DNA of 13,111 bases, from positions 1 to 13,111 of IMG/VR virus record IMGVR_UViG_2703718818_000015. One strand, given 5' to 3'. Below the pieces are notes generated by a model that saw only the letters and a list, made by a program, of their open reading frames with translations, made no database searches and had not been told where the DNA came from. The translations under genes and the position numbers were made by a program. Shown one piece after another: positions 1 to 13,111 of this stretch; position 1 is the stretch's first letter, and each line of letters starts with the position of its first letter. This DNA is from a virus (Duplodnaviria > Heunggongvirae > Uroviricota > Caudoviricetes).

Positions 1-1053
1 TTACGGGGTAATGCCAACCGTTGCCGCCACTTTGTCGCCACTTGGCAGCGTTGCCAGAGGATTGAAACGGAGCGCCGTTTCCAGATGATCCGGTGCCAGA
101 TGTGCGTAACGCATAGTCATTTTTATATCGTGGTGTCCGAGAATTTTTTGTAAGGCCAGAATGTTTCCACCCGACATCATGAAGTGCGCTGCAAACGTAT
201 GGCGCAGAACGTGTGTGAGTTGACCGCGAGGGAGCACGATAGACGTTTTTTCCATCACGGATAAAAATTGAAAATAGCAGTCTGTGAAGAAATTGAACCC
301 ATCGAGCGCCATGATCTCTTCGTAAAGCTCTTTACTGATAGGGATGCTTCTGTTTTTCTTCCCCTTCGTTCTGACAAAGGTAATTCGGTATTTGGTCACC
401 TGTGAGCGGGTAAGATTTACGGCTTCACGCCAGCGTGCGCCTGTGCTTAAGCATATCTTAACTACCAGTGCCAGAATTGGGTCCTGACGTTTGCAATCAG
501 CCAGCAATTCAACAATCTGCTCATGGGTAAGCCATGCCATCTCTTTTTCTGCGATGGTGAATTTTCGCATGTTCTCCAGTGGGTTCGGATACGACCATTC
601 GCCCAGACGGGATAGTTCGCTAAAAACACTACTTAGATAGCTTTGCTCCAGGTTAATGGTGACCGGGCTTGCTCCTTTCTTCCATTTCTCGCTGAAGTAG
701 ATCTCGCCTGTCAGGCGTTTATCTCGATAGTGGGCAAACATTTTAGAGGTGAGATCGGTTGCAAGAGGATTGCCCAGAGCGTCAACCATCAACAGCAATT
801 TGTCATAGACATGCTGCCCAGCTGTCAGAGATTTACCATGTAGTTTGAACCATAGTTCAACCACGTCTTTCAGTGTTCGACGATCCACTGATTCACCCAG
901 CCAGGGCTTTGCTTCGGCTTCTTCCATCGTGTGACGCTCAAAAGCCAGTGCTTCGCCTTTGGTGGCGAATTGTTTACGCACACGACGCCCACTTCGTCCG
1001 GCGGGGTAACATTCGCAAAGCCATTTCCCTGTGGTGAGTTTTCGTACTGCCAT
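1..1053 (-). CDS. int: Phage tyrosine integrase (P2/186 family), 350 aa
   Basis: 350-aa ORF with C-terminal tyrosine-recombinase pattern (...HVLRHTFAAHF...MRYAHL...). ATG at 1051-1053 is preceded on the minus strand by GGAGGG. Sits at the prophage end next to the repressor operon. Stop codon is at 1-3, so the CDS is complete. Confidence 0.9.
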   Translation of the reverse strand: MAVRKLTTGKWLCECYPAGRSGRRVRKQFATKGEALAFERHTMEEAEAKPWLGESVDRRTLKDVVELWFKLHGKSLTAGQHVYDKLLLMVDALGNPLATDLTSKMFAHYRDKRLTGEIYFSEKWKKGASPVTINLEQSYLSSVFSELSRLGEWSYPNPLENMRKFTIAEKEMAWLTHEQIVELLADCKRQDPILALVVKICLSTGARWREAVNLTRSQVTKYRITFVRTKGKKNRSIPISKELYEEIMALDGFNFFTDCYFQFLSVMEKTSIVLPRGQLTHVLRHTFAAHFMMSGGNILALQKILGHHDIKMTMRYAHLAPDHLETALRFNPLATLPSGDKVAATVGITP

Positions 1054-1058
1054 AAAAA

Positions 1059-1079
1059 ATGCCCTCCAGTGGAGAGCAT
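1059..1079 (-). promoter_or_regulatory. 21-bp imperfect palindrome/hairpin flanked by A6 and T5, overlapping the int Shine-Dalgarno; candidate terminator/attenuator or operator
   Basis: ATGCCCTCCAGTGGAGAGCAT pairs at 9 of 10 arm positions. Read on the minus strand the stem is followed by TTTTTT and then the int ATG. The GGAGGG SD lies inside the 3' arm. Confidence 0.4.
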
Positions 1080-1106
1080 TTTTACTGTATGTATAACCAG
1101 TGTCAA
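1078..1106 (-). promoter_or_regulatory. Putative sigma70 promoter for int (-35 TTGACA, 16-17 bp spacer, A/T-rich -10)
   Basis: The minus-strand reading of 1101-1106 is a perfect TTGACA. A TAAAAA/AAAAAT -10-like hexamer lies 16-17 bp downstream (plus-strand 1078-1084). Hexamer match only, no experimental support. Confidence 0.3.
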
Positions 1107-1131
1107 TGTATGATGCTTAAGGTTACATACA

Positions 1132-1503
1132 TCATAAGTACCGATATGATTGCGGGGCCGTTATGTTATCACCTAATGAACTTAGATGAAGTGGTTGGTC
1201 ATAGATTTTTAGATTACCAATTTCTATAGCAAAGGCCTTTTCTTTGCTATGAAAATATGAGTCAAAAAATTGTTTACTGATACCCGCGTATTGGCTTGTT
1301 TTTTCCCATACAATACTTGGCTTGTCTTCTATAACATCTGCAATGTCAAATTCAGCAACAACTTTACCGACAGGCATTGTTGAATAAATAACCACAGATT
1401 TTACATCCGGTTTTTTGAAAATTCCTTTTCGGAATTCAAATTTCTTTGTTCCATTAAGGATTTTTTCTACATGCTCTGGGTTAATTGACAATAATACTTT
1501 CAT
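1132..1503 (-). CDS. ASCH-domain (PUA-like fold) protein, ~123 aa; cargo gene 3
   Basis: ORF 1132-1515; likely ATG start at 1501-1503 (a TTG at 1513-1515 is the alternative). GxKxxExR signature of ASCH domains present (G-T-K-K-F-E-F-R, nt 1429-1452). Size and N-terminal KVLLSI...EKIL pattern are typical of stand-alone ASCH proteins. Start overlaps the 3' end of the upstream gene by 23 nt. Confidence 0.7.
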   Translation of the reverse strand: MKVLLSINPEHVEKILNGTKKFEFRKGIFKKPDVKSVVIYSTMPVGKVVAEFDIADVIEDKPSIVWEKTSQYAGISKQFFDSYFHSKEKAFAIEIGNLKIYDQPLHLSSLGDNITAPQSYRYL

Positions 1504-2551
1504 TGACGCCACCAAGTTTAATAATGCTATTAAACTGTTCGTTTGTTAACTTCATGATCCCCCAGTAAGCTCGCGGGGATAATCCTACTTCAGAAATAAG
1601 TTTAGCACGATTTAGTCTTTTGGGCAAAGCAAGGTTATATGTAAAGCTTATAATATATGGGTATTTTTTTGTTCTATAAAAACTTTTAAGCTCAGATTCT
1701 GTAAAAACAGAATATCTAGAACAGTAATTTAGAAATTCTTTCTCTGTAACGAAAGAGTTTATATTTCTAACTTTTTCTACTACACATAAAGAAGTAGCAA
1801 CAGAACGGTAATATGCAGGCCCTTGATTATCGGATGTTCGGTATATAACGATTATATCGTTTGGCTTCATTAATTCAACATCTGACATGCCACAAATATA
1901 TACTTTTCTAATGCTATTTGCATATGATACATCAGCAACAACGTCTGGTGACTCTGTAATTAATTTTGAGTCAGGGAATAAACGAGTATGAAATACGGGG
2001 TATATTGAAAGCAAGAATTTATTTTCACTGCCTCTGTTATTAATAAATGGATAATCTGACAGTATATCGCCCGTAAGAGCATTACTATTCATTTCTTTTA
2101 TTAGTACTCGCTCTACACCATTTTCAGATTCTTTTACTCCAATATCTATAAAGCCATAGATTTTGAATAGTCTAATTAAGTAGTCATGTTTTTCAAAAAC
2201 AGTCACATATATATTGTTAGCATTATTATCTAGAGCGTGATCGAATATTTTTTTTAAAAATCGTTGACCACGAAGAGTTCCTTTTGGATTAAATTTAAAT
2301 GTTCCAACTTTTAGATGAATACCATCAGGAATATTTGGTTTTGTATCTTCAATGATACCTACTTCTGTTTTTAGATACAAAAAACCATCAATTTTATTTT
2401 GTTCATCATAAAGGACATATGCATAATCATTTGATTTACATTTAGAATGGAACCAATCAATAAACCCATGAGCATAATCGGATTTTAAAGAGTCAAAAAA
2501 AACATCAGAAAAATCTACTTGATTAAAAGGTATGTATTTTAAGTTTTCCAT
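1481..2551 (-). CDS. Two-domain protein, 356 aa: N-terminal GNAT-like (acyl-CoA N-acyltransferase fold) region, C-terminal PUA/ASCH-like region; cargo gene 2
   Basis: ATG at 2549-2551 with AGGA ~10 nt upstream, 2 nt after the stop of the upstream gene. N-terminal ~145 aa shows GNAT-like pattern (...YVLYDEQNKIDGFLYLK... / ...NNIYVTVFEKHDYLIRLFKIYGF...). C-terminal ~170 aa has beta-rich PUA-like character (...KVYICGMSDVELMKPNDIIVIY...). Domain calls are by eye only. Confidence 0.65.
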   Translation of the reverse strand: MENLKYIPFNQVDFSDVFFDSLKSDYAHGFIDWFHSKCKSNDYAYVLYDEQNKIDGFLYLKTEVGIIEDTKPNIPDGIHLKVGTFKFNPKGTLRGQRFLKKIFDHALDNNANNIYVTVFEKHDYLIRLFKIYGFIDIGVKESENGVERVLIKEMNSNALTGDILSDYPFINNRGSENKFLLSIYPVFHTRLFPDSKLITESPDVVADVSYANSIRKVYICGMSDVELMKPNDIIVIYRTSDNQGPAYYRSVATSLCVVEKVRNINSFVTEKEFLNYCSRYSVFTESELKSFYRTKKYPYIISFTYNLALPKRLNRAKLISEVGLSPRAYWGIMKLTNEQFNSIIKLGGVNESIIVN

Positions 2552-2553
2552 GT

Positions 2554-3336
2554 TTACAATCCTATTTTAAAATCACATGATAAGCAAATTGATTTAGTTT
2601 TAGATATGACGGCGAGTGTTTTCCCCGGAGTTTGACAATTAGTACAAACATTCCAATTTTTCGGTTTTCCATCAATCTTATATATGTTGGCTAAAATATC
2701 ATCTAAAGGAAAAAATGTTTTCATCATGTCTATAATGCTTGCTGCATAGTTTTTCTTTGCCTCGGCTAATTTTTGTTCAGGCATGTTTTTATCATTTATC
2801 AAGCAATGAACCAGGTTATTAAGAGGCTCTTGATATATCTCCTCTCGAAAAATTAGAAATGCACTTAAAAAGTCTTTACGTATTTCTTTATTATTACTTT
2901 TACCTAAGTGAATTACTTTATTTCTTTCTTTGCGCAAAATATCATAAATTTCATTAAAGCGCGGTGAAAGATTTCGCCCACTGATACTTTGTGCTATTCT
3001 ATGTAGTTCGGTTGCGTCTAATGTTGAACATTCGAAAAAAGATTTGTTTTTATAGCAGTCTTTTACTTCTTTTAAAAGTAAATAAACACTATGCTCAGCA
3101 ATTATAGACTTTAGATATATTTCAGCAGAATTAAAGAGTATTACCAAGCCAGATTGAAAGAAACTCTCTTTTTCGGATATTAAGCGTTTCAGTCGTTGTT
3201 CTTCTGTTTCAGGTTGAGCTGGGGCTTGCAATAACTCAATGTCAGAATAAAAGTGTAAGTAGAATGTTTTAATGAAAAACTCAAGGTTCCTTTTGGCATA
3301 AAGAAGCATCTCTTCATTGTTAGGAAGGTCTGTCAT
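2554..3336 (-). CDS. HEPN-like protein with C-terminal C4 zinc ribbon, 260 aa; cargo gene 1 (putative RNase-type effector)
   Basis: ATG at 3334-3336 directly abuts the cI stop (3337-3339), with AAGGA 7 nt upstream. R-N-K-V-I-H (residues 138-143, nt 2908-2925) matches the HEPN Rx4-6H motif in a helical context. C-terminus has CxxC-x16-CxxC (C231, C234, C251, C254). Very AT-rich coding sequence. Confidence 0.65.
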   Translation of the reverse strand: MTDLPNNEEMLLYAKRNLEFFIKTFYLHFYSDIELLQAPAQPETEEQRLKRLISEKESFFQSGLVILFNSAEIYLKSIIAEHSVYLLLKEVKDCYKNKSFFECSTLDATELHRIAQSISGRNLSPRFNEIYDILRKERNKVIHLGKSNNKEIRKDFLSAFLIFREEIYQEPLNNLVHCLINDKNMPEQKLAEAKKNYAASIIDMMKTFFPLDDILANIYKIDGKPKNWNVCTNCQTPGKTLAVISKTKSICLSCDFKIGL

Positions 3337-4293
3337 TTAAATATCCTTATATATACCAAAACATTTTGCTATTACATTAATATCCGCTAATAGACATTCA
3401 AAAGTTGTACTTTCATTAGATACTTTTACTTTTGCAATTGGAATTCTGGTTAGATCTCTAACACTAAATTTTCCTTCGATTTCAACTAACCATTTTCCAT
3501 CGGTTACTTCATCAAATGCTTTGTCTGCAAGATATACATTTCCTTCATCTACTATAGATATGGGTTTTTTCACCTTGCTGGGTAACATGGTTTTATCAAA
3601 AGGGAGATAATTTGTATCAAACAACATACCATTTATAACTTTTTTCCGTGTGATAGCAATAATATCGCTCTTAGCGTCTTCAAAGACAGGACCATTACCG
3701 GTTGTTAGCCACATTAATGAAGCTCCGGTTTCAAGTGCGCACTGGATGATCCAATCAGCTGGAAAGGTATCTCTCATGTAACGATTGGCTAATGTGCTTT
3801 TTGAAACACCAATGTGATCCGCTAGAGCTTGCCTTGTCTTAAATCCATAGGCGATAACTATTCGCTCGATTGCCGCTTTTCCTCCTTGATTAACCTCAAT
3901 GAGGCTCTCGTTCTTTCGGTGAGTATTGTTCTCATTTGGGGATTTTGTGTCTAAAGTGAGAGAATGAATCTCCTTACCATCTTTATGGTGGTTCTGTTCT
4001 GTATTATGTGTGACAGCCTCTACTGTGTTATCGGTACCAAATGCCAACCATTCAACCGACACGCCAGTTTCCATGCTGCAGATTATGACCCAGTCGGCAG
4101 GGAAGGTATCACGAGCATATCTGTTCGCCATTGTGCTTTGGGATATCCCTAAGTGGTTACAGAATGCTTGACGTGAAGTGAAGCCATAAGCTTTCAAAAT
4201 TCGGTCAATGACCTGTTGTCCTCCACGATTCTGCATGATTACAGTTTTCATTGCATCATCAACATGGCGAAATGTGATTTTGTGTGTTGACAT
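3337..4293 (-). CDS. cI: Phage 186-type CI immunity repressor with duplicated N-terminal HTH domain, 318 aa
   Basis: Residues ~141-318 resemble 186 CI (HTH N-domain then oligomerisation C-domain). Residues 28-87 are an internal repeat of residues 141-200, roughly 60% identical by eye (both contain ...AYGF..RQA...G.S.ST.ANRY.RDTFPADW.I.C..ETG...WL). ATG at 4291-4293. Divergent from apl. Confidence 0.8.
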   Translation of the reverse strand: MSTHKITFRHVDDAMKTVIMQNRGGQQVIDRILKAYGFTSRQAFCNHLGISQSTMANRYARDTFPADWVIICSMETGVSVEWLAFGTDNTVEAVTHNTEQNHHKDGKEIHSLTLDTKSPNENNTHRKNESLIEVNQGGKAAIERIVIAYGFKTRQALADHIGVSKSTLANRYMRDTFPADWIIQCALETGASLMWLTTGNGPVFEDAKSDIIAITRKKVINGMLFDTNYLPFDKTMLPSKVKKPISIVDEGNVYLADKAFDEVTDGKWLVEIEGKFSVRDLTRIPIAKVKVSNESTTFECLLADINVIAKCFGIYKDI

Positions 4294-4381
4294 ATCCGTT
4301 TTGCGATCCTATTCTCCGATTTGTGAAGTTGAAGTCACGATTAAAACCTGCTTATCACAAGACAATAGGAGATGTTGCATC
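4294..4381. promoter_or_regulatory. cI/apl divergent switch region (expected location of lytic/lysogenic promoters and operators)
   Basis: 88-bp gap between divergent cI and apl start codons. Contains apl SD AGGAG (4366-4370) and a tandem GAAGTT/GAAGTC repeat (4325-4336). Promoter hexamers could not be assigned confidently. Confidence 0.4.
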
Positions 4382-4603
4382 ATGACCCCTAACATTTCAA
4401 TAACTCTGAATACGCCACACGTCACAATTGAGCGTTATAGCGAACTTACTGGTCTTTCGATCGACACAATCAACGATATGCTGGCTGATGGTCGCATCCC
4501 TCGGCATCGTCTCCGTAAAGACAAGAAAAGAGAAAAGGTAATGATCAACCTTGCTGCTCTTACCGTTGATGCACTGACTGATTGCAATGTTGTATTCAAC
4601 TAG
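4382..4603 (+). CDS. apl: Apl/Cox-like excisionase and transcriptional regulator, 73 aa
   Basis: ATG at 4382 with AGGAG 11 nt upstream. HTH-like segment ([25 protein letters not shown]). Sits between cI and cII as in phage 186. The longer ORF 4208-4603 has its 5' extension antisense inside cI and is rejected. Confidence 0.65.
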
Positions 4604-4635
4604 TTCCATTTTGAGATACATCAGGGATGTCGACT

Positions 4636-5145
4636 ATGTTTGATTACCAAGTTTCCAAACATCCACATTTTGATGAAGCCTGTCGTGCATTCGCATTGCG
4701 CCACAACCTGGTGCAACTGGCAGAACGTGCAGGCATGAATGTGCAGATTCTGCGGAACAAGCTGAACCCAGCTCAACCTCATTTATTAACCGCACCAGAA
4801 ATCTGGCTGCTTACCGATCTGACTGAAGATTCAACGCTGATAGATGGTTTTCTGGCACAGATTCACTGCCTGCCATGTGTACCGATTAATGAGGTAGCAA
4901 AAGAGAAACTGCCGCATTACGTCATGAGTGCAACCGCAGAGATCGGGCGTGTTGCTGCAGGTGCGGTATCTGGCGATGTAAAAACCAGTGCAGGTCGTCG
5001 TGATGCTATCAGCAGCATTAACTCTGTAACACGACTGATGGCGCTGGCTGCTGTTTCATTGCAGGCCCGTTTACAGGCTAACCCTGCGATGGCGAGTGCA
5101 GTTGATACCGTGACTGGCCTCGGCGCCTCATTCGGTTTGCTGTGA
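4636..5145 (+). CDS. cII: Phage 186 CII-type lysogeny establishment regulator, 169 aa
   Basis: Strong resemblance to remembered 186 CII ([21 protein letters not shown]...[17 protein letters not shown]...[27 protein letters not shown]...). ATG at 4636 with AGGGA 8 nt upstream; an in-frame ATG at 4627 is the alternative. Confidence 0.85.
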
Positions 5146-5152
5146 GGTACTT

Positions 5153-5449
5153 ATGCTGACGAAAGAACCATCATTTGCATCGCTGCTGGTAAAGCAAAGC
5201 CCGGCAATGCACTACGGTCACGGCTGGATCATGGGTGAGGATGGAAAACGCTGGCATCCATGTCATTCACAAGATGAATTGCTGTCTCAATTGACCACGA
5301 GGAAACGGAGAAAGTCAAAATGTATGCAGCGGAAAGTGAAGTGGTTTATCAGTTTCGTTACAGAGGGGAGAGTTATTCAGTACCTGAAGATGATTTGCTC
5401 TGTTGTTATCCGTCGTTGTCGGGCGATGGCAGTTACTTTTTCACGCTAA
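5153..5449 (+). CDS. Hypothetical early protein (98-aa ORF; C-terminal third overlaps the next ORF in another frame)
   Basis: ATG at 5153 with GAGG 5 nt upstream, immediately after the cII stop. The N-terminal ~55 aa look protein-like; the C-terminal part overlaps ORF 5320-5544. Confidence 0.4.
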   Translation: MLTKEPSFASLLVKQSPAMHYGHGWIMGEDGKRWHPCHSQDELLSQLTTRKRRKSKCMQRKVKWFISFVTEGRVIQYLKMICSVVIRRCRAMAVTFSR

Positions 5450-5544
5450 AAGATGGGACGTTTTTACGGGGAGAGCAGGTTAAAGAGACGATACGAAAAA
5501 ATGTATCTCCTCTTGAACGTTACCGTAATAACAAACAACGATAG
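5320..5544 (+). CDS. Hypothetical small early protein, 74 aa
   Basis: ATG at 5320 with GGAGAAAG upstream. Protein-like composition. Overlaps the 3' part of ORF 5153-5449 in a different frame. Confidence 0.45.
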   Translation: MYAAESEVVYQFRYRGESYSVPEDDLLCCYPSLSGDGSYFFTLKDGTFLRGEQVKETIRKNVSPLERYRNNKQR

Positions 5545-5566
5545 TTGCGTTTTGGGGATATGAATT

Positions 5567-5908
5567 ATGGCAATTAATGGCGCTGCGGCGACTGTTCCAT
5601 TAAGCCCCGGTGAACGCCTGAATGGACTTAATCACATTGCGGAGCTAAGGGCGAAAGTTTTTGGCCTGAATATTGAGTCAGAGCTTGAGCGGTTTATTAA
5701 AGATATGCGTGATCCACGGGATATCAATAATGAACAAAATAAACGGGCACTGGCTGCCATATTCTTTATGGCAAAAATTCCAGCTGAACGTCATAGCATC
5801 AGCATTAATGAGCTGACCACTGACGAAAAGCGGGAGCTGATTAAAGCAATGAATCATTTTCGTGCAGTGGTGAGCTTATTTCCCAGACGGCTAACCATGC
5901 CGAATTAA
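5567..5908 (+). CDS. Hypothetical phage early protein, 113 aa
   Basis: ATG at 5567 with GGGGA 7 nt upstream. Co-directional with the early operon. No motif recognised. Confidence 0.55.
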   Translation: MAINGAAATVPLSPGERLNGLNHIAELRAKVFGLNIESELERFIKDMRDPRDINNEQNKRALAAIFFMAKIPAERHSISINELTTDEKRELIKAMNHFRAVVSLFPRRLTMPN

Positions 5909-5975
5909 CCAACTAATGAAATTAATGGCGTAAACCCGCCGGGCATCCCTTTATCTAAATTCAGGAGAATTGATT

Positions 5976-6209
5976 ATGCGTAATATTGAAACCCTCACGA
6001 CTAAAACCGGACCGGATGACGCAGGGCTTAATATTTTACTGACAGAGGCTCGTCTGGAAGAACGCCGGGCAAGGGCTGAAGCAATGGCAGCTCGCCTTGA
6101 TAGCCTGGCGTGTCATATCTCATCCCGTCAGCTAAACCACGTGGAAGCGGCAGAACTGCTGCGTGTGACTGCTGAAGCAATCCAGAACGAAGCGCAGGAG
6201 ATCCACTAA
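5976..6209 (+). CDS. Hypothetical small helical protein, 77 aa
   Basis: ATG at 5976 with AGGAG 8 nt upstream (ORF-track start 5970 is a TTG). Stop TAA overlaps the next start (TAATG). Confidence 0.55.
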   Translation: MRNIETLTTKTGPDDAGLNILLTEARLEERRARAEAMAARLDSLACHISSRQLNHVEAAELLRVTAEAIQNEAQEIH

Positions 6210-6436
6210 TGGCTGATGCAATGGATCTCGTACAGCAGCGCGTTGAAGAAGAACGCCAGCGCCATATCCGTGCTGCCCGTGCCAAAACGCCGGGCGTGTC
6301 CCGCGTGCTTTGCGTTGAGTGTGAAGCGCCAATTCCGCCAGCACGCCGCCGTGCCATTCCGGGTGTGCAGCTTTGCATTACCTGTCAGGAAATCGCAGAG
6401 CTGAAAGGTAAACATTACAACGGAGGTGCTGTATGA
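6209..6436 (+). CDS. TraR/DksA-family C4 zinc-finger protein, 75 aa
   Basis: C-x2-C-x17-C-x2-C (C35, C38, C56, C59), the spacing characteristic of DksA/TraR zinc fingers. AGGAG 8 nt upstream. Stop overlaps the dam start (ATGA). Confidence 0.75.
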   Translation: MADAMDLVQQRVEEERQRHIRAARAKTPGVSRVLCVECEAPIPPARRRAIPGVQLCITCQEIAELKGKHYNGGAV

Positions 6437-7290
6437 GCACCATCCTGAAATGGGCGGGAAATAAAACCGCCGTAATGTCCGAACTGAAAAAACATCTTCC
6501 TGCTGGTCCGCGACTAGTTGAACCTTTCGCGGGTTCCTGTGCTGTGATGATGGAGACGGATTATCCCTGCTATCTGGTTGCGGATATTAATCCTGATTTA
6601 ATCAACCTCTATAAAAAGGTTGCCGCTGATTGTGAATCGTTTATATCTCGCGCCAAAGTTTTATTTGAGATCGCAAACAGGGAGGTGGCTTATTACAACA
6701 TAAGGCAGGAGTTTAATTACTCAACTGAAATTACTGATTTCATGAAAGCGGTATATTTCCTGTATCTCAATCGTCACGGTTACCGTGGGTTATGTCGCTA
6801 TAACAAGAGCGGGCATTTCAACATTCCCTACGGTAATTATAAAAATCCGTATTTCCCTGAAAAAGAAATTCGCGCTTTTGCAGAAAAAGCCCAGCGAGCA
6901 ACGTTTATCTGCGCCAGCTTTGATGAAACGCTGGCGATGTTGAAGGCGGGGGATGTGGTGTATTGCGATCCGCCTTATGACGGTACGTTTTCCGGCTATC
7001 ACGCTGACGGCTTTACTGAAGATGACCAGTATCACCTGGCATCCGTTCTTGAACATCGGTCATCAGAAGGACATCCGGTCATTGTTTCTAACAGTGACAC
7101 ATCCCTGATCCGTTCGCTGTATCGCAATTTTACTCACCACTATATCAAGGTAAAACGCAGCATCGGCGTAGCAGCTGGTGAGAGTAAATCAGCAACAGAA
7201 ATCATTGCTGTTTCCGGGCCGCGCTGCTGGGTGGGATTTGATTATTCGCGTGGCGTGGATAGTTCTGCCGTGTACGGAGTACGTGCATGA
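6433..7290 (+). CDS. dam: Dam-family DNA adenine (N6) methyltransferase, GATC-type, 285 aa
   Basis: Close resemblance to E. coli Dam over the whole length (LKWAGNK SAM motif, LVEPF.G, ADIN.DLI.LY, FLYLNR.GY.GLCRYN, catalytic DPPY). GGAGG SD 7 nt upstream. Confidence 0.9.
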
Positions 7291-8333
7291 GCCATGCCGA
7301 TATGAGCAACTGCTGCGGCTTTAACGAGGCTGCCGCATCGTTCTCATGGAACAGCCCGAAAAAGGCCATTAACCCTTATCTGGACCCGGCGGAAGTTGCG
7401 CCGGTTTCTGCGCTTTCAAACCTGATCACTCTGTACGCTGCCGATAACGAGCAGGAACAACTGCGCCGCGAGGCACTGAGTGATCAGGTCTGGGAGCGTT
7501 ATTTCTTTAATGAATCCCGTGATCCTGTCCAACGCGAAATAGAGCAGGATAAGCTCATTAGCCGGGCAAAGTTGGCGCATGAGCAGCAGCGTTTTAACCC
7601 GGACATGGTCATTCTGGCAGACGTCAGCGCCCAGCCCTCCCATATCAGCAAGCCGCTGATGCAACGTATTGAATACTTCAGCAGCCTGGGCAGGCCAAAG
7701 GCTTATTCCCGCTATTTACGTGAGACGATTAAGCCATGTCTGGAACGACTGGAGCATGTACGCGACAGCCAGCTATCTGCATCTTTTCGTTTTATGGCAA
7801 GCCATGTAGGGCTGGACGGCCTGCTGATTCTGCCTGAAATGAGTCAGGATCAGGTGAAACGCCTGTCTACCCTTGTCGCTGCGCATATGAGCATGTGCCT
7901 TGATGCAGCTTGTGGTGATTTGTATGCCACCGATGACGTTAAGCCGGAAGAAATCCGCAAGACATGGGAAAAGGTGGCAGCGGAAACCCTGCGTCTGGAT
8001 GTCATCCCGCCTGCGTTTGAGCAACTCCGTCGGAAAAGAAACCGCCGTAAACCCGTGCCCTATGAACTCATTCCGGGTTCGCTGGCGCGTATGTTGTGCG
8101 CCGACTGGTGGTACCGGAAATTATGGAAAATGCGTTGCGAATGGCGGGAAGAGCAGTTGCGTGCTGTCTGCCTGGTCAGCAAAAAAGCATCTCCCTATGT
8201 CAGCTATGAAGCCGTGATGCATAAACGTGAGCAGCGCCGCAAGTCACTGGAGTTTTTCCGTTCTCATGAACTGGTGAACGAAGAGGGCGACACGCTGGAT
8301 ATGGAAGACGTGGTATCAGTGCAGCGCGGGTGA
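7287..8333 (+). pseudogene. A: Replication initiation gene A, N-terminal ~348-aa fragment (3' half deleted)
   Basis: Position after dam, as the replication gene in P2/186. C-terminal region resembles the remembered P2 gpA mid-region (...WWY.KL......W.E..L.AV..V.K..SPY.S..A....R.....LEF...). Full-length gpA is roughly twice this size, and the ORF is followed 46 nt later by tail gene U. Confidence 0.6.
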
Positions 8334-8379
8334 AGGCAAAAGCCAGGAGTAACTACAGCGATCAGGGGGGATACGACGC

Positions 8380-8850
8380 ATGATGATGGTGCTGGGATTG
8401 TACGTGGTGCCGTATCAGGAGCTGCAGTATCAACGCAGCTGGCGACATGCGGCAAACAGCCGGGTAAACCGACGTCCGTCCACGCAGTTTCTGGGACCGG
8501 ACAACGACATGCTGACGCTTTCCGGTGTTCTTATGCCGGAGATAACAGGTGGCAGGCTGTCGTTGCTGGCACTGGAGCAGATGGCAGAACAGGGGAAAGC
8601 ATGGCCCCTGATTGAAGGCAGCGGCACGATTTATGGCATGTATGTGATTGAGGGACTGAATCAGACTAAAACGGAGTTTTTCCGCGACGGTATGCCGCGC
8701 CGGATTGAGTTCACCCTGTCGCTCAAACGGGTGGATGAATCCCTGTCCGATATGTTCGGTGATCTCAGTGCGCAGCTGAATAATCTGCAGGGAACGGCAA
8801 CATCTGCCTTAAGCGATATCAGTAAAACGGTGGGAGGGCTTCTGTCGTGA
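8380..8850 (+). CDS. U: P2-type tail protein U, 156 aa
   Basis: Resembles remembered P2 gpU (MML.LG...; ...LSGVL.PE.TGG.L...L....AE.G.AWPL..G.G.IYGMYVI...F...G.PR.I.FTLSL.RVDESL). Stop overlaps the start of D (GTGA). Confidence 0.85.
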   Translation: MMMVLGLYVVPYQELQYQRSWRHAANSRVNRRPSTQFLGPDNDMLTLSGVLMPEITGGRLSLLALEQMAEQGKAWPLIEGSGTIYGMYVIEGLNQTKTEFFRDGMPRRIEFTLSLKRVDESLSDMFGDLSAQLNNLQGTATSALSDISKTVGGLLS

Positions 8851-9947
8851 ATTTCAGCTCTGAACTGCTTAACAAAGGCAACAAAACTCCGGCATTCAGC
8901 ATCAGTATTGAAGGCAGGGATATCACCACTGTGCTGGACAACCGCCTGATGGGGCTTACGCTGACGGATAACCGGGGCTTTGAAGCGGACCAGCTTGATC
9001 TGGAGCTGGACGACGCTGACGGAAAAATCGTGCTGCCGCGCCGTGGTGCGGTCATTACGCTGGCGCTGGGCTGGAAGGGGCAGCCGCTTTTCCCGAAAGG
9101 GGCATTCACGGTGGACGAGATTGAACACACTGGCGCACCGGACCGCCTGACTATCCGGGCGCGAAGTGCTGATTTTCGGGAAACGCTGAATACCCGCCGT
9201 GAAAAGTCGTGGCACAAGACCACGGTCGGGGAAGTGGTGAAGGAAATAGCCGCGCGGCACAAACTGAAGATGGCACTGGGTAAAGACTTGTCGGATAAAC
9301 CCGTGGAGCATATAGACCAGACCAATGAGAGTGACGCCAGTTTTTTGATGCGGCTGGCGCGCCAGTACGGTGCTATTGCGTCGGTGAAAAATGGCAATCT
9401 GTTATTCATCCGACAGGGACAGGGTAAAAGTGCCAGCGGTAAACCACTGCCGGTGATCACTATCACACGTAAGGACGGCGACAGTCACCGCTTTACCTTG
9501 GCAGATCGCGGAGCCTATACGGGCGTAATTGCCAGTTGGTTGCATACCCGCGAACCCGCGAAGAAAGAAAGCACAACGGTGAAGCGTAAGCGCAGGACTA
9601 AGAATCAGAAGAAAGAGCCGGAAGCGAAGCAGGGCGATTACCTGGTGGGTACGGATGAAAACGTGCTGGTACTTAATCGCACTTATGCCAACCGGAGCAA
9701 CGCTGAACGGGCAGCGAAAATGCAGTGGGAACGCCTGCAACGCGGCGTTGCGTCATTCTCGCTACAACTGGCGGAAGGGCGGGCAGATCTCTACACGGAA
9801 ATGCCTGTGAAGGTCAGTGGCTTTAAACAGCCGATAGATGATGCGGAATGGACCATTACGACTCTGACGCATACCGTCAGCCCGGATAATGGTTTTACGA
9901 CCAGTCTGGAGCTTGAAGTGAGGATTGATGATTTCGAAATGGAATGA
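8847..9947 (+). CDS. D: P2-type tail protein D, 366 aa
   Basis: Resembles remembered P2 gpD (TPAF.....G.DIT..L..RLM.LT.TDNRGFEADQLD.EL.DADG...LP.RGAV...). GTG start at 8847 with GGGAGGG ~10 nt upstream. Immediately precedes ogr as in P2. Confidence 0.85.
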   Translation: MNFSSELLNKGNKTPAFSISIEGRDITTVLDNRLMGLTLTDNRGFEADQLDLELDDADGKIVLPRRGAVITLALGWKGQPLFPKGAFTVDEIEHTGAPDRLTIRARSADFRETLNTRREKSWHKTTVGEVVKEIAARHKLKMALGKDLSDKPVEHIDQTNESDASFLMRLARQYGAIASVKNGNLLFIRQGQGKSASGKPLPVITITRKDGDSHRFTLADRGAYTGVIASWLHTREPAKKESTTVKRKRRTKNQKKEPEAKQGDYLVGTDENVLVLNRTYANRSNAERAAKMQWERLQRGVASFSLQLAEGRADLYTEMPVKVSGFKQPIDDAEWTITTLTHTVSPDNGFTTSLELEVRIDDFEME

Positions 9948-10037
9948 TTCTTCGCAATGGAGAACTTTTAAGTTTGCAAAATGGAATAATGCGGTATCAT
10001 TATTGTGAATTTAGCAAAAATGGGGAGAACTCGAAAA

Positions 10038-10256
10038 ATGATGATTTGCCCACTGTGTGGAAGTGCCGCCCATACTCGCAGCAGTTTTCAGGTATCTTCA
10101 TTGACCAAAGAGCGTTACAACCAGTGCCAGAATATTAACTGCAGCCATACTTTTGTAACCCATGAAACTTTTGTTCGTTCGATTGCAACGCCAAAAGAGT
10201 CAAATCCGGTTCAGCCGCATCCAATGAAATCAGGACAGGTGGCGCTCTCTCTTTGA
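10038..10256 (+). CDS. ogr: Ogr/Delta-family zinc-finger late-gene activator, 72 aa
   Basis: CPLC...C.N.NC zinc-finger arrangement and length matching P2 Ogr (72 aa). ATG at 10038 with GGGGAG 10 nt upstream. The longer ORF-track start (10005) is a GTG and is rejected. Confidence 0.85.
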   Translation: MMICPLCGSAAHTRSSFQVSSLTKERYNQCQNINCSHTFVTHETFVRSIATPKESNPVQPHPMKSGQVALSL

Positions 10257-10336
10257 CGCTGCCGCCATTTTGTCGCCATCGTTAAAAAACAGTGCTTCTA
10301 ACGTCATGATTTTAAAAGGCATAAACTTCAGGCAAC

Positions 10337-10379
10337 AAAAAACCCATCAACCTTGAACCGAAATGGCGGGGTTGATGGG
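10337..10379 (-). terminator. Rho-independent terminator, minus-strand sense; probable ybjL terminator
   Basis: 10-bp perfect inverted repeat CCCATCAACC (10343-10352) / GGTTGATGGG (10370-10379). On the minus strand the stem is followed by TTTTTT (complement of 10337-10342). Lies 113 nt downstream of the ybjL stop. Confidence 0.5.
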
Positions 10380-10491
10380 CTCCACAAAATGGGGACATCA
10401 AAGAAAAGCAGTGGCACTAATTAAGACTGATGCCCTGCGGAAAAGTTCTGCGGTTGTGCAAAAAAATTTCATTTTCAGGGCAACTTCAGTT

Positions 10492-12177
10492 TTATCCTAA
10501 TCCTGGCCATACCATGACGATGATTGTCCCTGCCAGCGTCAGCAGGACGTTGGCGATTGCATAGGTGCCCGCATAGCCCAGCGCCGGGATGTTACTGCGA
10601 GCTGTATCACTGATGATCTCCATTGCCGGCGCGCAGGTACGTGCGCCCATCATTGCGCCGAACAACAGCGCGCGGTTCATTCGCAATACATAAGCACCGA
10701 ACAAGAAACAGATAACCACGGGCACCAGACTGACAATCAATCCGGCAATCAACATCTGACCGCCAATCGCGCCCAGGCCGTTATTAATACCGCTACCGGC
10801 GCTCAGACCAACGCCTGCCATAAACACCATCAAGCCGAACTCTTTCACCATGCTTAATGCACCCTGCGGAATGTAACCGAAGGTCGGGTGGTTAGCACGC
10901 ATAAAGCCCAGCATAATTCCGGCGAATAACAACCCGGCAGCGTTCCCCATGCCGAAACTGAATGTGCTGAACTGGAAGGTGATCATCCCGATCATCAGCC
11001 CAATAACAAAGAAGGCGCAGAATGCCAGCAGGTCAGTGACCTGGCTGTGAATCGAGATAAAGCCGATGCGATCGGCGATGGTTTTTACGCGGCGGGCATC
11101 GCCGCTGACTTGTAAAACGTCACCTTTGTTAAGCACGACGTTGTCATCTATCGGCATCTCAATCTGGCTACGAATGACGCGGTTAAGGAAGCAACCGTGA
11201 TCGGTCAACTTCAGTTGTGCGAGACGTTTACCTACAGCGTTATGGTTTTTAACGACCACTTCTTCAGTGACGATACGCATGTCGAGAAGGTCACGATCGA
11301 AAACTTCTTTACCGTTACGGAAGCTGGGATCGAGTCGGGCATGGGCGTCGGGATAGCCTACCAACGCTATTTCATCGCCCATTTGTAGCACGGCATCACC
11401 GTCTGGATTTGCCAGAATCCCGTTACGTCGAATACGTTCAATGTAGCAGCCGGTTTGTCGATAAATACCCAGTTCACGCAGATTTTTGCCGTCGGTCCAG
11501 GCCACCAGTTCCGGGCCGACGCGATAGGCGCGGATCACCGGTAAATAAACCTTACGGTTGGCATCAGTGTCCAGGCCACGTTCGCGGGCGATTTGCTGGG
11601 CGCTGGTCTGTAAGTCCTGATGCTGCAATTTCGGCAAGTAACGCGCACCAACAATCAAACTCACCAGACCGATTAAATAGGTTAAGGCATACCCGAGGCT
11701 CAGATTATCCAGTGCCAGTGAGAGCTGCCTGCTTTCCATGCCGGAATGACGCAGTGTATCGCCAGCACCGACCAGAACCGGTGTCGACGTCATAGAGCCT
11801 GCTAACATACCGGCCGTCAGGCCAATATCCCAGCCAAACAGCTTACCTAACCCTAAGGCGATCACCAGCGCACTGCCAACCATCACCAGTGCTAACATTA
11901 GGTAATTTTTCCCATCGCGAAAAAAAATGGAAAAAAAGTTCGGTCCGGCTTCGACCCCGACGCAGAAAATAAACAGCATAAAGCCAAGATTAAGCGCATC
12001 GGTGTTAATGCTGAAATGTTGTTGGCCTAATAACAGCGATACGACTAAAACGCCAATGGAATTACCCAGTTGGATCGAACCAAGTCGTAACTTTCCGAGA
12101 CATAGCCCAAGCGCGAGGACCACAAATAATAACAGAATGTAATTCCCATTTAACAATTCGGCGACGTTTATATTCAC
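10492..12177 (-). CDS. ybjL: Putative AAE-family transporter YbjL (membrane protein with two TrkA-C/RCK_C-like domains), 561 aa
   Basis: Recognised as E. coli YbjL ([18 protein letters not shown]...). GTG start at 12175-12177. Hydrophobic N- and C-terminal halves flank a soluble central region. Confidence 0.95.
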
Positions 12178-12446
12178 GGAGGCTAACTTCTTGTTTACTA
12201 GTAAGCTGTTGAAAGAAATGGTAATTTACGATAATGTTTTTTACCAGAATTCAGGGCGCAGATTCATTCAGCGCACCTAAACGATAGTAAAGCAACAATA
12301 TATTTTACTAGTGTAATCACATTAGGTATCAACGGCTATATGAATTGCGTTGGCCTATATTAGCATGGAATGCGAAGCGGCTTTATCTTACTGAACGCCA
12401 CACTGGCGAAAAATGTGTTCGATAGACGCAGTGTCAGGAGGAACGA

Positions 12447-12824
12447 GTGAAACATAAACAACGTTGGGCGGGGGCAATCTGCTGTTTTGTCCTCTTCATT
12501 GTGGTGTGCCTTTTTCTGGCGACGCACATGAAAGGCGCTTTTCGGGCTGCCGGGCATCCTGAAATCGGCTTGCTATTTTTCATTCTTCCTGGAGCAGTCG
12601 CCAGCTTCTTTTCACAGCGTAGAGAAGTCCTGAAACCTCTGTTTGGCGCAATGCTGGCGGCACCCTGTTCGATGCTCATTATGCGGCTGTTTTTTTCACC
12701 GACGCGCTCATTCTGGCAAGAGCTGGCATGGTTACTAAGCGCGGTGTTCTGGTGTGCGCTGGGGGCACTGTGTTTCTTATTTATCAGTAGTTTGTTTAAA
12801 CCACAGCACAGAAAAAATCAGTAA
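12447..12824 (+). CDS. ybjM: Inner membrane protein YbjM, 125 aa
   Basis: Recognised as E. coli YbjM (MKHKQRWAGAICCFVLFIVV...). GTG start with AGGAGG 6 nt upstream. Strongly hydrophobic. Confidence 0.9.
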   Translation: MKHKQRWAGAICCFVLFIVVCLFLATHMKGAFRAAGHPEIGLLFFILPGAVASFFSQRREVLKPLFGAMLAAPCSMLIMRLFFSPTRSFWQELAWLLSAVFWCALGALCFLFISSLFKPQHRKNQ

Positions 12825-12843
12825 AGCCCTCAACGCGAGGGCT
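12825..12843. terminator. Bidirectional intrinsic terminator between convergent ybjM and grxA
   Basis: Perfect 7-bp stem AGCCCTC / GAGGGCT with 5-nt loop, directly after the ybjM stop. On the minus strand the stem is followed by TTTACTG. Confidence 0.6.
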
Positions 12844-12853
12844 TGTCAGACGA

Positions 12854-13111
12854 TCAGGCGTCCAGATTTTCTTTCACCCATGCAGCAAAATCGGTATAGC
12901 CGCCGATATGTTGCTGATCGACAAAAATCTGCGGCACGGTTTCTACGGGTTTACCTGCCTTTTGTTGTAGATCTTCTTTAGTGATCCCTTCCGCACGAAT
13001 ATCTACATACTGATACTGAAAATCATCGCGTTCATTGCTCAATTTCTCAGCCAGATCTTTTGCACGCACACAGTAAGGGCAACCCGAACGACCAAAAATA
13101 ACGGTTTGCAT
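12854..13111 (-). CDS. grxA: Glutaredoxin 1, 85 aa
   Basis: Recognised as E. coli GrxA with CPYC active site (MQTVIFGRSGCPYCVRAKDLAEKL...). The start codon is the last three bases of the window, so the CDS is complete. Confidence 0.95.
   Translation of the reverse strand: MQTVIFGRSGCPYCVRAKDLAEKLSNERDDFQYQYVDIRAEGITKEDLQQKAGKPVETVPQIFVDQQHIGGYTDFAAWVKENLDA

Follow-up and report, generated by a model that had tools for sequence, protein, structure and literature searches.

The window, as we call the whole 13,111-nucleotide (nt) stretch of DNA analysed here (positions 1 to 13,111 of IMG/VR virus record IMGVR_UViG_2703718818_000015), is Escherichia coli (E. coli) chromosome and holds a P2/186-type prophage remnant, now about 10.4 kb in size, between rcdA (just beyond the window) and ybjL-ybjM-grxA (10492-13111). 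Our subject is the place in this remnant where a truncated phage replication gene A, which we name A', is followed at short distance by tail genes. A' encodes 348 amino acids (aa) (7287..8333, plus strand) and is identified by Pfam, by PHROG and by its DNA match to full-length A. Its stop codon, TGA at 8331-8333, leaves a gap of 46 nt before the start at 8380 of tail gene U (8380..8850, plus strand; Pfam GpU, E 3e-41), which encodes 156 aa rather than 161. Then follow the tail/baseplate hub gene D (8847..9947, plus strand; Pfam Phage_GPD), with its full length of 366 aa as in intact relatives, and a gene for an ogr/delta-type late activator of 72 aa (10038..10256, plus strand; Pfam Ogr_Delta, and a gene call in locus L007). 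The candidate attR is at 10321..10347 (plus strand) and the candidate attL approximately 75-100 nt beyond the window start (L007 2614-2640). Both belong to a direct-repeat family (D1) of L007, have an identical 15-nt core, CAACAAAAAACCCAT, and together bracket the whole element.

We compared window positions 7000-9000 with 50,697 phage records and 5,426 complete E. coli genomes. The DNA of A' is 100% identical to the first 1029 nt of the 2415-nt (804-aa) A gene of the intact 35-kb prophage that NZ_CP170298.1, too, carries at rcdA-ybjL; the matches to A, from 55 phage records and 1,297 E. coli records, end at window position 8315 without exception. A' consists of codons 1-343 of the 804-codon A plus five junction-derived codons (SVQRG), which bears out an earlier sequence-only reading of this DNA, where an A-like frame was said to stop at about 348 aa, roughly half its full size, with U starting 46 nt later. 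A' matches the family models only in part, Pfam Phage_GPA at profile positions 1-152 of 321 and PHROG 91 ("nicking at origin of replication") at 16-310 of 852. In the 804-aa protein, GPA extends over residues 188-510 and the Pfam REP_ORF2-G2P domain over residues 409-506, the latter domain lying beyond residue 343. An alignment of this protein with P2 A and 186 A places the HUH motif (EPHHDGTVHWH) and the tyrosine motif (YIAKYISK) after residue 343 as well, and A' is without either motif and without the REP_ORF2-G2P domain. According to the GenBank annotation, the nick at the origin falls within A itself, at P2 codon 620 and 186 codon 611. Since both of these codons map to residue 675 of the 804-aa protein, past residue 343, the replication origin has been deleted.

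The joint has the order A (to window 8315), a 20-nt piece of the lysozyme gene K, the last 53 nt of the tape-measure gene T, and U. Junction 1, by base-by-base comparison, is a GTA microhomology (8313..8315, plus strand) common to A (nt 1027-1029) and K. The K island, GTATCAGTGCAGCGCGGGTG, occupies 8313..8332 (plus strand), corresponds to K nt 141-160 with an exact match at L002 21194-21213, and keeps the orientation and colinear order of the intact prophage. When an 18-mer from the island was searched for in the 41-kb reference with at most 3 mismatches, gene K alone was hit, and 100 shuffles gave no match. Junction 2, seen in the same comparison, is a TG microhomology (8331..8332, plus strand) common to K and T. 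Homology to the 3' end of T picks up again at 8328-8331, and the retained T segment (8331..8383, plus strand) runs from nt 3026 of 3078 and includes the T stop, whose overlap with the start of U reads ATGA. It is the joint of K and T that gives rise to the TGA stop of A'. We considered whether the 12-15 nt between the A and T homologies could be untemplated filler or a mutated T end; the exact 20-nt match to K excludes both. A third break lies 75 nt downstream, inside U, where 15 nt are deleted in frame at 8406/8407 without any microhomology. This removes residues FMLRT (reference 10-14) from the first conserved GpU stretch, a stretch that aligns to the pyocin "ripcord" PA0626 (PDB 6u5b). Three breaks therefore fall inside 95 nt, with overlaps of 3, 2 and 0 nt. 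The sequence-only reading had suggested an alignment to intact relatives for the breakpoint and its microhomology, and this alignment is what yields the A break at 8315 and the GTA and TG overlaps; its picture is to be refined on two points, as A is not joined directly to U and U itself is damaged, lacking five codons.

Compared with an intact relative, the window is missing the 3' half of A, a DinI/Tum-like gene, the cargo cassette of the A-to-Q slot, genes Q P O N M L X Y K lysA-C R S V W J I H G FI FII E, and almost the whole of T; apart from the 20 nt of K, nothing is left from A nt 1029 to T nt 3026. Relative to NZ_CP170298.1 the deleted DNA comes to 12.3 kb plus 12.1 kb, about 24.4 kb, a size that is approximate because this reference is mosaic with respect to the window (92-100% identity by segment). 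That agrees with the proposal of a deletion junction in a P2/186-type prophage with an interval of more than 20 kb. In phage 186 the LexA-controlled gene tum directly follows A according to the GenBank annotation; a DinI/Tum-like gene stands at the tum position in a relative, and the window has none. Neither the window nor the intact 186-like reference contains the P2 cos 19-mer, and we infer the loss of cos from the deleted interval (which takes in the Q-side region, the place of cos in P2 and 186), not from the 19-mer search. No plus-strand terminator-like site was found between A' and U-D. With the late promoter lost, A', the damaged U (U') and D would be read only from the CI-repressed early promoter, and they probably have no role. 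The gene content predicts an element that could not be induced by the SOS response, replicate, lyse the cell or be packaged. The earlier statement that it cannot form particles is likewise supported by gene content, given that head, cos and most tail genes are gone. Rare excision of a dead 10.4-kb circle is conceivable, as int, apl and both att sites remain.

Assemblies from NCBI, ENA and Logan include 239 contigs with the exact A' protein and 373 with the exact U' protein. Each of loci L007-L009 has 1-4 single-nucleotide polymorphisms (SNPs) against the window across all 13,111 bases, and all copies read hold the three breaks together. In the 5,426 complete E. coli genomes, the GTDB species representatives, IMG/VR and the JGI metagenomes, we found neither the junction and the U allele nor any sequence with only one of the three junctions. 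The scar is a genuine allele fixed in one E. coli lineage known from draft assemblies only; GCA_021080685.1, GCA_049156905.1 and SRR28158753 are examples of its members.

The element has the features of a P2/186-like (Peduoviridae) prophage: a CI-type repressor, Apl/Cox, CII, an A of the HUH-initiator family, and 92-100% DNA identity to annotated prophages. Its right end reads T-U-D-ogr beside att, with the integrase at the opposite end, colinear with NZ_CP170298.1. The complete head, lysis and tail modules and the cos of a functional phage are lacking, and the scar holds the gene fragments expected of a defective or cryptic prophage, namely A' (343 of 804 codons), the K island, T' (53 nt) and a U with a 15-nt deletion. 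None of the open reading frames (ORFs) has domains for what marks a satellite (its own replication or primase function, capsid-size or helper-exploiting genes), and since scraps of K and T remain, the element is a deletion product and not a designed satellite. In our explanation, a 186/P2-type prophage between rcdA and ybjL lost a large internal segment and the joint is the scar, and we give this explanation as a whole a probability of roughly 0.85.

For the three breaks as such, one event seems to us a somewhat better than even bet. They would come from one complex illegitimate-recombination event, either by serial microhomology-primed template switching or by RecA-independent end joining of several breaks that captured a 20-bp fragment. 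We favour one complex event because the three breaks lie within 95 nt, are colinear, have overlaps of 3, 2 and 0 nt, and have no known intermediates. E. coli is known to form deletions as large as 40 kb with microhomology at their joints (PMC4872102), complex rearrangements result from multiple template switches with 2-5 bp of microhomology (PMC2621351), and E. coli has inspired models of long-distance template switching and of break-induced replication mediated by microhomology (MMBIR) (PMC1428787, PMC2621351). The hallmarks of such template-switch or MMBIR-type events are present here: at least two junctions in cis, the GTA and TG overlaps, the 20-nt colinear K segment, and a third break 75 nt away. 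What the scar has in common with MMBIR, template switching and alternative end joining is several junctions in cis, 0-3 nt of microhomology and, lying between two large deletions, a short segment that is templated and colinear; what differs is that here a natural prophage deletion is inferred from one sequence alone. The product would be a "grounded" prophage, harmless to its host and carried to fixation in one E. coli clone.

Several points weigh against this explanation. The single event is argued from proximity alone, and microhomologies of 3, 2 and 0 nt barely exceed chance. Remnants at this same locus in EC05, EC596 and LR-45 show deletions from A to the lysis region, so that a deletion from A to K first and from K to T later is conceivable. 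The mosaic reference makes the deletion size approximate, and non-inducibility and absence of expression rest on gene content and on the phage 186 annotation.

These points bring us to the alternative that two or three separate deletions made the scar stepwise, for instance A to K, then K to T, then a small slip in U, which is a real possibility, though one we would bet against. Independent remnants at the locus with single deletions from A to lysB, lysC or R, 12-14 kb long and close in size to the A-to-K step, speak for it, as do the multiple separate deletions in several remnants (L010, L020, L028). The difficulty is geometric: the second deletion must begin no more than 20 nt from the first junction without crossing it, about 1 in 1,000 for uniform endpoints, and the third must then land 75 nt further on. 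Furthermore, none of the collections searched contains an intermediate.

The remnants that bear on this question form a series. At least eight other independent deletion derivatives occupy rcdA-ybjL. A junction of Q' to T' occurs in APEC O78 and at least 16 other genomes, and a junction of P' to T' is seen in VE-V11-M and VE-V10-F and in PEC41. EC05 has A nt 1302 joined to lysB as well as a V'-to-T' junction, AF56 runs from Q' through further pieces to FII' and U', LR-45 has A nt 864 joined to R plus others, EC596 has A nt 1626 joined to lysB, and in BL21 only the 3' part of A remains. Junction overlaps in these remnants are of 1-10 nt, with small islands in some. These remnants come from a search that joins pieces up to approximately 7 kb apart and ranks by coverage of the window; an apparent clustering of their right endpoints in T was rejected as an effect of ascertainment. 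Amongst the E. coli records with this A gene, 69 of 1,292 are missing at least 20% of it. Host-killing functions are removed in every case, which is the established picture of prophage grounding, and the scar in the window is an ordinary example of it. L006 and L013 share an identical P'-to-T' junction, yet have different cI alleles and different cargo between int and cI; apparently, remnants still swap modules by homologous recombination after grounding.

The compound scar is one further instance of a well-known kind of defective prophage. In E. coli K-12, ogrK-yegZ (D') is a defective P2-like prophage remnant. Like the defective P2-like prophages of E. coli, such as the rcdA-ybjL remnants in APEC O78 and BL21, the element has an internal deletion of structural and lytic genes and keeps its end or ends, including D and ogr. 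It differs from the other P2-like remnants in its own breakpoints, in the two-step joint with a 20-nt K island, in the nearby 15-nt deletion in U, and in its PDC-M11 cargo. With coliphage 186 (Eganvirus) it shares the CI-Apl-CII switch, fil, DUF2732, a DksA-like gene and an ogr/B homologue beside att, and the organisation of its family is also that of 186, with an internal origin in A and a Tum/DinI SOS module after A. In contrast to 186, whose att is at tRNA-Ile, the site here is rcdA-ybjL, CI is larger with two helix-turn-helix (HTH) domains, dam is present, and A is longer (804 vs 694 aa). With P4-type satellites it has in common its small size, its integrated state and its int, repressor and ogr/delta-type activator genes, and it differs from them in having no cos, no replication function and no genes of the sid/psu/alpha type. 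For annotation, this means that A' is best described as a pseudogene and U as damaged, and that the element is predicted to be non-inducible. The scar also provides a clean natural example of a multi-break, microhomology-joined deletion, and the independently decayed members of one prophage family at rcdA-ybjL form a natural series that could be used to gauge the routes of inactivation and the parts that persist.

The genes left of the scar raise the question of why this remnant is kept. The left arm has an integrase gene of 350 aa (1..1053, minus strand; Pfam Int_N and Phage_integrase) and, in the variable slot between int and cI, a cargo cassette of three genes (1132..3336, minus strand; PADLOC, Pfam ASCH). 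A 127-aa ASCH-domain protein and a 356-aa protein of the cassette match B and A of the PADLOC candidate system PDC-M11 (E 4.9e-48 and 2.4e-130), and the third protein, of 260 aa, has weak DUF3644/HEPN-like similarity. The CI repressor gene (318 aa; 3337..4293, minus strand; Pfam Phage_CI_repr in two stretches plus Phage_CI_C) is followed by an intact early lytic operon (4382..7290, plus strand; Pfam/PHROG, and gene calls in L007) with apl-like, cII, fil, DUF5347, DUF2732, TraR/DksA-like and dam genes. We confirm the earlier observation that the int, cI, dam, ogr and cargo ORFs are intact.

One reading of this arrangement is that the remnant has been domesticated, selected for CI immunity and for its candidate defence cargo, which we consider doubtful. 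The intact state of all left-arm ORFs, the PDC-M11 match of the cargo, the fixation of the remnant in a lineage seen on at least 239 contigs, and the retention of the same early region in many independent same-locus remnants are all in favour of it. These arguments lose force on closer inspection. The copies differ by so few SNPs (1-4 per 13.1 kb) that purifying selection cannot be told from lack of time, and since cI and the cargo are no more intact than the functionless A' and D, an intact ORF is here no evidence of selection. The remnants were ranked by window coverage, so that their shared retained parts are partly a product of ascertainment, and in EC596 int has an internal stop; thus, the left arm decays too. 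The loss of every host-lethal module, repeated independently at this locus, is accounted for by selection against killing functions no less well than by selection for the functions retained.

A different question is whether the breaks that produced the deletion scar occurred where they did for a reason. A search with A' returned many A'-fusion proteins from other deletion remnants, which we mapped on the reference, and we read the DNA of eleven loci; junction partners can be mapped for in-frame fusions only. Besides the window's own junction, five further independent junctions fall inside A nt 1027-1046, for a total of six. In L016, at an ssrA-side att site, the break is at A nt 1028-1030 with a TAA overlap, and A is joined to D. 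In L025, from a lineage 82% identical, the break is at about A nt 1028 and the partner is T. L026 breaks at A nt 1038-1041 and is joined to FII, and L022 breaks at A nt 1044-1046 and is joined to T, with a second joint of T' to ogr. In L031 it is the right-hand side that is kept, from A nt 1027, joined to A-158. The A alleles in the last 70 nt differ among all of these remnants, as do their chromosomal sites and partners. With 25 mapped junctions over approximately 1,020 nt of A, about 0.5 are expected per 20 nt; five are seen, with a Poisson probability of about 1.5e-4.

Other positions recur too. K nt 159/160 (window 8331-8332) marks the end of the island in the window, and at this position K is also broken in L027 (A nt 1319 joined to K, at 9320) and in L028 (A nt 915 joined to K, at 8915); the window retains the left side of this position, L027 and L028 the right side. 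Further half-junctions recur with different partners at T nt 2149 (L029, L030), I nt 280 (L020, P0049), A-158 (L029, L031), A-304/305 (P0050-P0052) and A-426 (P0038, P0049). Several events link two recurrent sites, and many junctions are at a (G)TA step.

From these coincidences one may propose, tentatively and with the odds against it, that breakage or fork collapse, followed by microhomology joining, prefers two places, A nt 1027-1046 (immediately ahead of the conserved catalytic core) and K nt 159/160, the window scar being one product. The five other remnants in A against 0.5 expected, the K position shared with L027 and L028, and the additional recurrent half-junctions are what recommends the proposal. 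A shared motif or DNA structure was not found, however, and the retrieval of fusion proteins, which returned no full-length A, is open to length bias. Some coincidences may also be secondary deletions from a shared ancestor; in particular, L028 could stem from a junction of the L027 type via a 5-nt ATGTC repeat. Type II topoisomerases and nucleases are candidate breaking agents. Gyrase cleaves before G with a 4-nt stagger (PMC6379681, PMC2094056), and the TG step close to most breaks would suit such an enzyme, but these steps are so frequent that they carry no evidential weight, and a gyrase-type origin is only a guess. As for a hairpin at the A hot spot, the DNA fold there is unremarkable (z = -0.25). 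The possibility that the A breakpoint is a pseudo-origin was discarded, as it has no similarity to the P2 or 186 ori sequences. By eye, without a formal scan, no convincing match to Chi-like, restriction-site, Int-core or CRISPR PAM (CTT) sequences was seen near the breaks. If the A and K breakpoints hold up in an unbiased survey, they would point to a specific mechanism that initiates prophage decay.

Finally, the ideas that the scar is an assembly artefact, to which the absence of the junction from complete E. coli genomes might lead, or that the 348-aa protein is a full-length member of another family beside an unrelated U-D element, as the sequence-only reading had allowed, can in practice be set aside, given that three sources supply hundreds of independent assemblies with this very junction, that the A' DNA is 100% identical to the 5' 43% of full-length A, and that U, D, ogr and attR are colinear with intact prophages at the same site, with attL and attR bracketing the whole.

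A few observations concern the relatives and the ends of the element. The remnant's CI carries two tandem CI-type HTH domains, and many relatives at the same locus have a CI of 189-210 aa with one. Relatives have other defence genes in the slot between int and cI, where HEPN plus GmrSD, SNIPE, an ATP-dependent nuclease or YdcA are seen. In L017, a P4-like satellite (9574-16352) with primase/D5, AlpA, delta-like and Psu genes adjoins an ssrA-side remnant in which A' is joined to D'. A 22-nt direct repeat, CGYTGCCGCCAYTTTGTCGCCA, is present at window 19-40, inside the 3' end of int, and at 10257-10278, just past ogr; its copies may be arm-type sites for Int that flank the att sites. In the dam gene of relatives, an IS1 (L002 6417-7189) and an IS2 (L013 6448-7779) sit at nearly the same place, approximately nt 130-200, and the dam gene of the window is intact.

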